A DNA stretch of 64,000 bases from the NCBI RefSeq assembly GCF_001677475.2, contig NZ_CP012498.1. One strand, 5' to 3'. Numbering within the stretch: the first letter of the stretch is position 1; the number at the start of each line of letters is the position of its first letter. Positions 35,301-38,300 of this stretch are shown piece after piece. The stretch is from Escherichia coli. Lineage in GTDB: Bacteria > Pseudomonadota > Gammaproteobacteria > Enterobacterales > Enterobacteriaceae. The position numbers are program-made.

Positions 35301-38300
35301 TCTTTAAAGAGTCCGTTATCCTGCATATGCGTGAGCACCGGTTGTCTGTTCGCGAAGTCTGTGCAAAATTCACTATTCCGGCTTTCTCCACGGTCCTTCT
35401 GTGGGAACGCCTGTATGATGAAGGGGGATTAGAAGCCCTCACTGACAGCCGACGCGGGAGAAAAACGATGCCAGAACGCCCTGAAAATAACCCGGCACCT
35501 TCTTTACAGGCTCCTCTTAACCATGATGAACGAGAGGAACTTGAACAACTGCGTGTTGAAGTGGCTTATCTAAAAAAGTTGCAGGCCTTGCTCAGGGAAA
35601 AAAGCACGTCAAAACGCGGGATAAAACGCAGATCGTGAATGAGTTAAGGCCGGACTTCCCTCTTGCGCGCTTGTTAAAAGCGGCAGGGCTGGCGAGAAGT
35701 ACGTTCTACTGGCAACTGGCGAGCGGTAAAAAACCAGACAAATATGCCGATGATAAGCGGCAGATTTTAACGCTGTTCCATAAACATAAAGGACGGTATG
35801 GATACAGGCGAATCACGCTGGCTATCCGCCGGGAAGGAAGCTTACTGAACCATAAAAAGGTTCAGAGGTTAATGAAGGCGTTAGATTTAACCTGCTGTAT
35901 CAGAAGGAAGAAATACAACTCTTACAGAGGCCGGTATGGGAAAGTGGCGGGTAATGTGCTGAACCGGCAGTTCAGTGCGGATAAGCCCAACCAGAAGTGG
36001 GTAACAGATGTCACGGAATTTAAAATCAGCGGAGAAAAACTGTATCTGTCCCCCGTTCTGGATCTGTATAACGGAGAAATAGTTGCGTATCAGATGGCGT
36101 CCCGTCCTCTTCTGTCGATGGTGGATGACATGCTGTTGAAGGCTGTATCTGTACTGGGTAAAGACGAATACCCGCTGCTCCACTCAGATCAGGGCTGGCA
36201 ATATCAGATGGCGCATTATCAGAACCGGCTTAAGGAGGCTGGTCTGAAACAGAGCATGTCAAGGAAGGGGAACTGTCATGACAATGCGGTGATGGAAAGC
36301 TTCTTCGGCACGCTGAAATCTGAGTGTTTTTACCTGATGGAACACAAGAATATCAGCGAGTTGCGCATGGCTATCGATAATTACATCCACTATTACAACC
36401 ATGAAAGAATAAAACAGAAACTGAAAGGCCTGAGTCCGGTAGAGTACCGAACCCAGGCCCTGATAGCCGCTTAATATAAACCGTCCAACATTATGGGGTC
36501 AGTTCAGTTCGTCCTGTTGTTGCCGCACGCCCCGCAGAATATGTATGCTCTGAGGACCTGTTTTATTAAGGACTCATCCCCTTATGTTGACCCGCAAAAG
36601 TATCGATACAGTTCTGTTCTCTGTTGGTGCTGAGAAGTTCTCACAATGTGAATGGGACTGGATGAAGATGCTCAAACCCATGGCCCCACCACCTGCGATG
36701 GTCGCGGCCTCCATCCTGGAGCACCGTGGTGATACAGCAGCCCTTACCCTACTACAAGATACCGGGGGTTAATCCGTCCTCATGTTGTCCGGTTTTACTC
36801 CCCGTCCGCTGAAACGCCTGTTCAGTGAGTTAGCTGGCCTGGATGTAATCACTCGTTCAATTCAATTCTCTTAATGTGGGAAAATTTCCGAATTCCAAGC
36901 GGCCCCCTCAGTACACGCTCGTAAGAGCCCCTGACGGCCCGCTAACGCGGAGATACGCCCCCGATTGAGGCCGGGACCACTCCGACCGCGCACAGATGCT
37001 CTGTCATGGCTGAAAGCGGTTATGGCTTAGCAGGATGGGGATGGGTAAGGTGAAATCTGTCAATCAGTACCAGCTTAAGCCGGGCTTCGGAGGTTTGGCA
37101 ATGTGCCATATGAAACAGTTGAGTGCCGCCTTCCATGCCGCTGACGCAGCATCCTGGTGACGATATCTGAATCGCTATATACTGTGTATATACACGGTAA
37201 TGACGAGGTGATAAATGGCACAGGTTAATATGAGTTTAAGAATTGACGCTGAACTGAAGGATGCTTTTATGGCCGCTGCAAAAAGCATGGATCGTAATGG
37301 CTCTCAGTTAATCCGGGATTTTATGCGCCAGACCGTTGAACGGCAGCATAATACCTGGTTCCGTGACCAGGTTGAGGCAGGTCGTCAGCAACTCGAACTC
37401 GGTGATGTGCTTCCCCATGATATGGTCGAATCCTCCGCTACTGCATGGCGGGATGAAATGAGCAGGAAGGTTGCCGGTAAATGATGGATATATTCTGGAC
37501 CATGCTGGCCAGCCAGGACAGGAAGCACATTCGTGAGTACATTGCGGAGCAGAACCTGATGTCCGCCATTGAACTGGACGAACGGATTGGTTATTCAGCC
37601 AGCAATCTGGCCGGGCAGCCGTATAAAGGCCGCAACGGTCGTGTGGAAGGTACCCGGGAACTGGTTATTCACCCGCATTTTGTTCTGGTTTATGAGGTCG
37701 ATAGCCAGTGGGGAAAAGTGTATATCCTGCGCGTATTGCATACCGCACAGAAGTGGCCATAGAGGGGCTGTCCGGATATAAAAACGTCTGACGGAGATGC
37801 AATAACCATGAATAATGATGATCTGGCTACCAAACGTGCGCAGACTATTGCTGAAGATCGCCGGATTTTTGTTTGCGAGGTTTAGCTGAACGGACCGTAT
37901 AACTAACTGAAAGACAATGACATTGTCTGTTTTTATAACGGTAATCTCAGGCCATGACAAGCCGCAGCCGTCAGGCTGCCTACTCGATTTCTTTTCTGAT
38001 TCATCTGAAAAGAAAACAGGTAATTTTTATTTTCAAAAGCAAGCCGGTAATTATAGCTGTCCTGTCCGGGGAAGTATTCCTTCATATAAGTTAATGCAGG
38101 CCACAAATAATATTCCTGAGGACATTACTTTTAAAGCATATTACCTGCCCTACAAAAAGAATAATGTTACATCCCTGTCACTGGAATTAAATTCAGATTT
38201 TAATTATTTCTTTACAGATATACTGGATGGCTGTTCAGTTGGAATACGCACATAGGAACTTGTAACCCGCGTATACCATGCTAATGCCTTCAGGTATGGT

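Follow-up and report, generated by a model that had tools for sequence, protein, structure and literature searches.

What sort of toxin does a small gene pair on a large virulence plasmid of Escherichia coli encode, and is the pair still intact? The question is raised by a 64,000-nucleotide (nt) stretch of E. coli DNA (contig NZ_CP012498.1 of assembly GCF_001677475.2), here called the window, in which a first-pass annotation had placed a "RelB/RelE-type" toxin-antitoxin pair at 37215-37762. That reading is correctly located and essentially correct, with a correction of the subfamily from RelE to ParE. As judged from its sequence, the pair is an intact copy of yacA-yacB that evolves under constraint, and not a chance pair of open reading frames (ORFs). 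On sequence profile and modeled fold, the toxin YacB is a ParE-subfamily member of the RelE/ParE superfamily and is of RelE type only at the level of the superfamily. The annotation was therefore right to see a type II pair and right about the superfamily, while profile, fold, and residues put the toxin on the ParE branch. The two genes, taken from the ORF list and the sequence, are as follows.

37215-37484, plus strand: yacA, antitoxin of 89 amino acids, ATG start
37481-37762, plus strand: yacB, toxin of 93 amino acids, ATG start

The ORF list and the sequence bear out the overlapping frames of 89 and 93 amino acids and their antitoxin-first order. The genes are co-oriented, and the stop of yacA and the start of yacB share a 4-base-pair (bp) overlap, ATGA (gtaaATGAtgg). 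A second in-frame ATG in yacB, at 37484, gives the 92-amino-acid form that NCBI/RefSeq annotates as YacB. A ribosome-binding site for yacA, GAGGTGA, lies at 37205-37211, 3 nt 5' of the start codon, and AGGAAGG is found 11-14 nt upstream of the two yacB starts. This is the generic type II layout: small, adjacent, co-oriented genes with ATGA coupling, a significant family match for the toxin, and an antitoxin that resembles ribbon-helix-helix (RHH) proteins below threshold.

The names come from protein comparison, in which YacA of the window is 97% identical to the named YacA WP_000079928 and YacB is 96% identical to the named YacB WP_001384452. The exact proteins are also public. YacA (ANO92432.1) is recorded on 101 contigs, and YacB (ANO92433.1) is recorded in two forms, on 32 and 21 contigs; several entries for each carry the names YacA and YacB. 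Compared to the common allele, YacB has four changes (E2D, R15H, A27S, and S41N), and the ratio of nonsynonymous to synonymous change (pN/pS) is 0.09 for yacA and 0.29 for yacB, the substitutions being few and mostly synonymous. Because near-identical or exact named proteins are public and pN/pS is low, the locus can be taken as a known, named, and intact gene pair. The pair is very common on E. coli F-type plasmids, and the finding is real but ordinary and already known.

The choice between ParE and RelE, which the first-pass annotation had left to a hidden Markov model assignment, comes out as ParE. In Pfam, YacB matches ParE_toxin (PF05016) at 1.6e-16, with 61.1 bits against a cut-off of 23, and a profile of its own family finds almost only ParE-type structures. 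For that profile, an exhaustive HMMER search gave 1902 representatives, and 74 full-length sequences were aligned. Its best match among PDB sequences is ParE2 of E. coli O157 (5cw7, 2e-22). Further matches are two Mesorhizobium ParE toxins (5ceg, 2.5e-11; 6x0a, 9e-11), ParE_SO (7etr_C, 1.6e-10), the ParE of Pseudomonas aeruginosa (6xrw_A, 2.9e-8), and Caulobacter ParE1 (3kxe, 1.2e-4), as well as PrpT (7ycs) and ParE toxins of Mycobacterium tuberculosis and Vibrio (8c24, 8c26, and 7r5a). Up to E <= 1, this search gave a single chain of RelE type, M. tuberculosis RelE2 (3g5o), with an E of 0.21 over 25 residues.

The fold points the same way. The AlphaFold (AF2) model of YacB has a predicted local distance difference test (pLDDT) score of 96.1 and consists of a short strand, helices at 7-21 and 25-41, and strands at 58-63, 66-73, and 78-86. 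This helical hairpin on a three-stranded sheet is the ParE fold by hairpin length, since the N-terminal alpha-hairpin is longer in ParE than in RelE (PMC10886550). In a Foldseek comparison with the PDB, the template modeling (TM) score of the model is 0.90 to ParE2 (5cw7) and 0.79-0.87 to other ParE toxins, compared to 0.53-0.69 to RelE, YoeB, YafQ, and HigB. The RNases appear in the list from rank 21 downwards, interleaved with lower-scoring ParE chains.

Could YacB nevertheless be a ribosome-dependent mRNA endonuclease of RelE type, paired with a RelB-type antitoxin? The NCBIfam model TIGR02385 (RelE_StbE) matches YacB at 30.9 bits against a cut-off of 27.9, a small margin, and the best NCBIfam match of YacA, below threshold, is RelB_DinJ. 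Some public records bear the name "mRNA interferase toxin, RelE/StbE family," and a transcriptome preprint on enterotoxigenic E. coli (ETEC) labels yacAB, from annotation, as a RelE-RelB ribosome-dependent mRNA interferase (PMC11957205). The TIGR02385 match cannot separate RelE from ParE, because the structure-based evidence favors ParE. On the other side are the single 25-residue match to a RelE-type chain, the lower TM scores to the RNases, and a tblastn search with E. coli RelE and RelB sequences, which misses the locus. The residues can be compared as well. In E. coli RelE, catalysis and RNA binding depend on K52, K54, R61, R81, and Y87. When the YacB family is set against the single RelE of K-12 with hhalign, K52 falls on R50, K54 on V61, and R61 on V67, and the C-terminus of YacB (…HTAQKWP) falls short of the equivalents of R81 and Y87; this register is of low confidence, as the hhalign probabilities (24% for RelE and 4.5% for RK2 ParE) are both non-significant and usable for register only.

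A toxin ORF without conserved catalytic residues had been named beforehand as the result that would speak against the pair. Formally, the RelE residues do go unmatched in the low-confidence alignment, but this is the wrong test for a ParE toxin. ParE toxins are non-enzymatic and act by binding their target, without catalytic residues, so a comparison with RelE residues does not apply to them. What YacB does retain, position 27 apart, are all the invariant or nearly invariant residues of its own family, W5, A9, A28, L42, P46, G52, T57, R58, E59, Y70, H86, and P92. On profile, fold, and residue comparison the assignment of YacB to RelE was rejected, a RelE-type activity is very improbable, and the common "RelE/StbE mRNA interferase" annotation is probably wrong at the subfamily level.

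YacA, for its part, is a probable RHH DNA-binding antitoxin with a C-terminal toxin-binding helix, as its sequence and model suggest. Its Pfam and NCBIfam matches are all below threshold and all to RHH families (RHH_1, RelB, DUF6290, RHH_9, CcdA, and TIGR02384). A profile of 23 homologues, compared with the PDB, places 7etr_A (CopA_SO) and 6xrw_B (P. aeruginosa ParD) at the top with an E of 0.14, followed by DinJ, RelB, the PutA RHH domain, and ArtA; all the proteins listed are RHH proteins, with E from 0.14 to 1.1. The assignment gains weight because the partner toxins of the two top matches, 7etr_C and 6xrw_A, match YacB significantly. In the monomer model, helices span 12-24, 27-61, and 68-86, and residues 1-11, where the RHH strand would form in a dimer, are disordered (pLDDT 41). 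CopA_SO is laid out as an RHH, an extended alpha2, and then a toxin-binding alpha3 (PMC8706911), and the modeled helices of YacA fit this CopA_SO/ParD layout (beta1, alpha1, long alpha2, and alpha3).

An RHH antitoxin would be expected to have somewhere to bind, and the short region upstream of yacA holds a candidate site.

37155-37183, plus strand: candidate yacAB promoter, with -35 TGGTGA at 37155-37160, a 17-nt spacer, and -10 TATACT at 37178-37183
37175-37204, plus strand: candidate YacA operator, three 8-mers with an 11-bp period
37175-37182, plus strand: first operator 8-mer, CTATATAC
37186-37193, plus strand: second operator 8-mer, GTATATAC
37197-37204, plus strand: third operator 8-mer, GTAATGAC

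TATACT is likely the -10 box of a weak promoter, and at the aligned position the Salmonella allele has a perfect TATAAT. The first two 8-mers, CTATATAC and GTATATAC, form the palindrome TATATAC-TGT-GTATATA, and the last two, as GTATATAC-ACG-GTAATGAC, lie between the likely -10 box and the ribosome-binding site. An alignment of the DNA 5' of yacA homologues in E. coli, Salmonella, Brenneria, and Erwinia, whose proteins range down to about 60% identity, shows the pattern GTAYMTAC-N3-GTAAYGAC kept in all four, with a 3-nt spacer that varies (ACG, GTG, AGC, and ACC). The pattern occurs once in the 64-kb window, where 0.00 occurrences are expected. It resembles the experimentally defined operator of CopA_SO, GTANTAC-N3-GTANTAC (PMC8706911). 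The repeats are a good candidate for the YacA operator, which would make the operon autoregulated. No RNA family was found by Rfam in 36400-38400 at E <= 1.

It is quite probable that yacAB is an intact type II operon, situated on a 952-bp fragment severed from repA on the left and from yacC on the right, and that it works as follows. A weak sigma-70 promoter would yield a single message, on which the gene arrangement couples the translation of yacA and yacB. A dimer of YacA, through its N-terminal RHH, may bind the GTAnnTAC-type repeats with their 11-bp period at 37175-37204, as the conservation of the motif and the analogy with CopA_SO suggest; because the repeats overlap the -10 box and the leader, such binding would repress the operon. 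The C-terminal helix of YacA would wrap around and neutralize YacB, in keeping with the layout of the model and with the ParD-ParE and CopA-ParE complexes. YacB itself would be the ParE-fold toxin to which its sequence profile and fold point. Upon loss of the plasmid or degradation of YacA, free YacB would stop growth, most likely by poisoning DNA gyrase as the ParE toxins of RK2 and Vibrio do, a step less certain than all the others. Overall, the pair would stabilize the large virulence plasmid post-segregationally alongside ccdAB, and it is in this predicted sense, read from the sequence, that yacAB may be labeled an addiction module.

Is gyrase the target? Gyrase poisoning is the usual activity of the ParE toxins that have been studied (PMC10886550, PMC8706911), and within the working model a gyrase target for YacB, argued by analogy, is slightly favored; another target is the less likely choice, without being a distant one. 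The difficulty is ParE2 of O157, which is reported neither to bind GyrA59 nor to inhibit gyrase (PMC10886550, PMC8706911). Because this closest solved relative is reported to spare gyrase, the gyrase step is the weakest of the model and deserves a moderate preference at most. One could thus consider YacB a ParE-fold toxin with a non-gyrase target, like ParE2, with the rest of the toxin-antitoxin logic unchanged. ParE2 is the best solved match by far, with a phmmer value of 9e-8 and 29% identity in addition to the profile and TM values given above. Most characterized ParE toxins do inhibit gyrase, however (PMC10886550, PMC8706911), and negative biochemistry is not transferable at 29% identity. 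Also, PaaA2 is not an RHH protein, whereas YacA resembles the RHH antitoxins of the ParD/CopA systems. This alternative is possible but on the unlikely side. A bolder combination, and a doubtful one, is that YacB, which plasmids carry in about a quarter of complete E. coli genomes, has a non-gyrase target and that YacA exerts its control through a CopA_SO-like GTAnnTAC tandem operator; the near-constant native linkage of the pair to the IncFII origin region and to yacC would then hint at a replicon-linked role beyond simple addiction. The non-gyrase question concerns the whole YacB family rather than the window.

Besides the TIGR02385 match and the biochemistry of ParE2, several observations weigh against the working model. 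Residue 27 of YacB is Ser, where 67 of the 74 relatives have Ala and 5 have Ser. The scores of YacA fall below their cut-offs (RHH_1, 15.9 against 20.5; RelB, 14.6 against 22.4; TIGR02384, 24.7 against 45.65 bits), and its monomer model, with a pLDDT of 72, is moderately confident and does not form the N-terminal strand. The -35 box, TGGTGA, is poor, which makes the promoter weak by consensus, and a consensus scan called no promoter upstream of yacA; the same scan found no terminator after yacB. PADLOC gave no defense-system match at the locus. In the literature, no experiment was found on toxicity, neutralization, or stabilization by intact E. coli YacAB, and functional statements were found only for the frameshifted, inactive copy of pWR100.

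How widely the pair occurs was assessed by megablast with window 37100-37850 as the query, against plasmid records and 5426 complete E. coli genomes. Among the plasmid records, 2330 matched the locus, 1522 over almost its whole length, and related DNA was found in 1482 of the 5426 genomes, where 2013 of 2043 places are plasmid-borne. The features that lie under more than 1500 plasmid matches are the yacA antitoxin, the yacB toxin, and a 3'-5' exonuclease gene. Full-length matches reach about 94.9% DNA identity at best, so that the copy in the window is about 5% diverged from the commonest allele. In the native synteny, an IncFII/FIC repA is followed by a conserved block, yacA, yacB, and yacC, the 3'-5' exonuclease gene. 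The pair is over-represented on ColV/ColBM plasmids (PMC4707298) and is reported to be induced in ETEC in freshwater (PMC11957205). In Shigella, the copy on pWR100 is reported to be inactive owing to a frameshift, a 2-nt insertion in yacB (PMC9455713, PMC7354431, PMC5658099), and public records contain numerous YacA and YacB products that are truncated or fused.

Relatives of YacA are also found further afield. An Erwinia toletana-type contig carries, at 2501-2770, a chromosomal YacA homologue of 60% identity that keeps the operator-like repeat. Downstream of it there is no YacB homologue (tblastn E 0.65), which makes it an orphan antitoxin, and its neighbors are other toxin-antitoxin genes (mqsRA and gp49/helix-turn-helix). 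The Brenneria homologue retains its toxin and adjoins hipBA.

The window itself does not preserve the native position of yacAB. The IncFII repA is absent from it and yacC is truncated, while the upstream block and a stub of yacC are present. By BLAST, homology to native yacAB plasmids (L001 and L003) is confined to the 952-bp IncFII-derived fragment at 36906/36910-37857. The flanking features are as follows.

36906-37150, plus strand: copy B of a conserved block of about 250 bp, the left end of the 952-bp fragment, abutting the promoter region
37808-37885, plus strand: yacC stub, the first 18 codons of the 3'-5' exonuclease gene, with a stop at 37883-37885
37862-37988, minus strand: IS91-family end stub, the terminal ~90 bp and the first ~11 codons of orf121

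The pair had been described as lying between a 250-bp element and an IS91 stub, with its promoter region directly after copy B of the element, and this arrangement holds. In the alignment the block ends near 37150, and the IS91-family end is present at 37862-37988. Native plasmids have the block between their IncFII repA/ori region and yacA; in L001 it starts 596 bp past the repA stop. A more distant Salmonella allele shares only 37138-37760 with the window, so that the toxin-antitoxin cassette and its promoter form a discrete unit. Two more copies of the block are found in the window, in direct orientation and non-coding, at about 20430-20680 (A) and 42440-42690 (C). They are 73-84% identical to B, with the likeness ending near 37150, and each precedes a gene for the heat-stable enterotoxin STa. 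Since all three copies are later followed by the same IS91-family end, three different cargoes sit in one frame. The position of the block would fit the primase "G-site," a single-strand initiation signal downstream of the IncFII oriR, which makes this identity a tentative lead; searches bearing on it gave no phage DNA similarity, no Rfam match, and no literature source. As single-stranded DNA, the block folds no better than shuffled controls on either strand (z = 0.16 and -0.36).

On the other side of the pair, tblastn with the YacC of L001 aligns residues 1-18 of 282 to 37808-37861 at 78% identity, and DNA homology to L001 and L003 ends at 37857. The sequence that follows belongs to a 127-bp direct-repeat family, D5, with copies at 37862-37988, 24996-25122, and 44469-44595. 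As a 126-bp sequence, D5 was found in 923 complete E. coli genomes, at about 2600 places in all, most of them plasmid-borne. In other plasmids (L011 and L012), D5 overlaps the start of a 121-amino-acid ORF, and directly after that ORF comes an IS91-family transposase gene or the zinc-binding-domain remnant of one; D5 is thus the orf121-proximal end of an IS91-family element. Beside copy B, nothing but this end of the element is left, joined to yacC at codon 18, and no coding similarity to an IS91 transposase was found in 37763-38900. The yacC/IS91 junction is an internal deletion junction and not a normal insertion boundary. In Salmonella IncFII plasmids (contig coordinates 3430-4632), yacC is replaced by a complete IS91-family transposase gene, about 380 bp 3' of yacB and oriented as the stub in the window is; the association of IS91-family elements with the yacB-yacC junction is therefore a recurrent one. 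A 121-amino-acid ORF with a TTG start also runs antisense at 37595-37960 (minus strand), across the IS91 stub, the yacC stub, and the 3' part of yacB. It is treated as mechanical and not as a gene, and the agreement of its length with that of IS91 orf121 is a coincidence.

A stranded fragment of this sort invites another explanation, namely that yacAB is an inert passenger whose frames happen to be intact, without expression or function, and that is heading for decay. The locus is detached from repA and yacC and has IS3- and IS91-family DNA on its flanks. The closest relatives of this segment (CP057155, CP169400, and others) have an IS1414 carrying astA/EAST1 in place of what is 35025-37624 in the window, so that yacA and the 5' two-thirds of yacB are lost and a 3' yacB pseudogene of 120-138 bp is left, apparently without loss of the plasmid. 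The truncated and fused products on record and the inactive pWR100 copy (PMC9455713) fit as well. The window, instead, has an IS3-family element at 35084-36474 and an intact yacAB, in which the frames, Shine-Dalgarno sequences, promoter region, and operator repeats match the common allele. The pN/pS values are below 1, and the exact allele is found on dozens of contigs. The IS1414 deletion is double-edged, as an active pair can be lost safely only if yacA goes together with the bulk of yacB, so that the deletion fits activity equally well. An inert passenger is accordingly improbable, and a working type II operon is the preferred reading.

The wider segment supplies the company that the pair keeps. 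The first-pass annotation had counted at least two addiction modules and two partition systems, and at the level of prediction this holds, with yacAB and ccdAB as the modules. Lying about 18 kb from yacAB, the maintenance cluster comprises the following.

55504-56026: ccdA/ccdB, 99% amino-acid identity to CcdA/CcdB of F
56949-57656: ORF for a ParA-like ATPase
58399-59445: ParM/StbA-type actin-like gene, 52% identity to ParM of R1

Searches of the window by tblastn with RelE, RelB, RK2 ParE, PemK, VapC, Hok, and SopA gave nothing; only CcdA, CcdB, and the ParM homologue were found in this way.

The virulence and metabolic cargo of the window is listed next.

21235-21450 and 43246-43461, minus strand: two identical copies of the STa enterotoxin gene (72 amino acids, …NTFYCCELCCNPACAGCY)
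29913-34889: genes for a transporter, gentisate 1,2-dioxygenase, an FAH-family hydrolase, maleylacetoacetate isomerase, and 3-hydroxybenzoate 6-monooxygenase

The STa copies sit on a duplicated segment of about 2.1 kb, in which 20490-22246 and 24669-25122 match 42501-44595; copy A is split by an insertion with ORFs of 499 and 251 amino acids (22353-24604). On pMFDS1022581_1, a segment whose annotation lists sta1, an IS91 pseudogene, ehxC, and ehxA matches the stretch 42416-47817 at 98.5% identity, and ORFs of 171, 1003, 705, and 479 amino acids (45697-52820) fit the enterohemolysin operon ehxCABD. With STa genes and an enterohemolysin segment both present, the plasmid combines markers of ETEC and of Shiga toxin-producing E. 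coli. The genes at 29913-34889 form a 3-hydroxybenzoate/gentisate degradation cluster, 98-99% identical to annotated relatives, directly upstream of the IS3 element beside yacAB. A 100-nt direct repeat (26816-26915 and 60960-61059, 98% identity) holds a Shine-Dalgarno-like sequence and an ORF start (ATGACAAAAACAGTATCAACCAG…).

In this setting, yacAB adds a further maintenance module to a large mosaic virulence plasmid with two STa genes, an enterohemolysin operon, ccdAB, and two partition systems, and it may help to explain how such a plasmid is retained. Since YacB is ParE-like, the phenotype predicted for it shifts from translation arrest to DNA damage, induction of the SOS response, and filamentation. 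Extremely common though YacAB is on IncF plasmids, the literature search yielded no functional work on an intact pair. The conserved GTAnnTAC-N3-GTAAnGAC repeat, for its part, is a candidate operator that can be tested directly.

How does the locus compare with systems already known? It shares with the named YacA/YacB of IncF plasmids (also those of pWR100, pS88, and the ColV plasmids) the ATGA overlap, the promoter/operator region, and the upstream conserved block. It differs from them in being detached from repA and in having a yacC of 18 codons joined to an IS91 end. With RelBE of K-12 (4fxe), the pair has in common the superfamily fold and the operon logic; RelB is an RHH protein, as YacA probably is, 4fxe_A being a weak match of YacA (E 1.1). 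YacB, however, reaches TM scores of 0.62-0.67 at 10-12% identity, the catalytic residues of RelE are unmatched in it, and its profile misses E. coli RelE.

The ParDE systems of RK2, Caulobacter, P. aeruginosa, Vibrio, and M. tuberculosis (3kxe, 6xrw, 7r5a, and 8c24) likewise combine an RHH antitoxin (probable in YacA) with a ParE toxin, antitoxin first, and have a role in plasmid stabilization, as is predicted for yacAB. To these toxins (3kxe, 6xrw, 7r5a, and 8c24) YacB has TM scores of 0.79-0.84, profile values from 2.9e-8 to 0.09, and identities of 18-23%. Gyrase inhibition is established for several ParDE toxins, whereas for YacB it is a prediction. In ParE2-PaaA2 of O157:H7 (5cw7 and 5czf), the closest solved toxin has 29% identity to YacB, a TM score of 0.90, the same hairpin and three-stranded sheet, and a similar C-terminus (HARRQFP, compared to HTAQKWP in YacB). 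Its antitoxin is of another kind. Hallez and colleagues reportedly described PaaA2 in 2010 as short and without a DNA-binding domain, within a three-gene system that includes the regulator PaaR, whereas YacA has 89 amino acids, is probably an RHH protein, and is predicted to autoregulate.

In ParE_SO-CopA_SO of the Shewanella oneidensis prophage CP4So (7etr), both partners match, with 7etr_A as the top match for YacA over residues 6-82, a weak one. The target of ParE_SO is itself unproven (PMC8706911). The systems differ in that the likeness of the antitoxins is non-significant (E 0.14), the half-site is 8 nt in the YacA candidate and 7 nt in that of CopA_SO, and one resides on a plasmid and the other in a prophage. 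They agree in the layout of the antitoxin, an RHH (probable in YacA) followed by a long alpha2 and alpha3, and in an operator of similar style.

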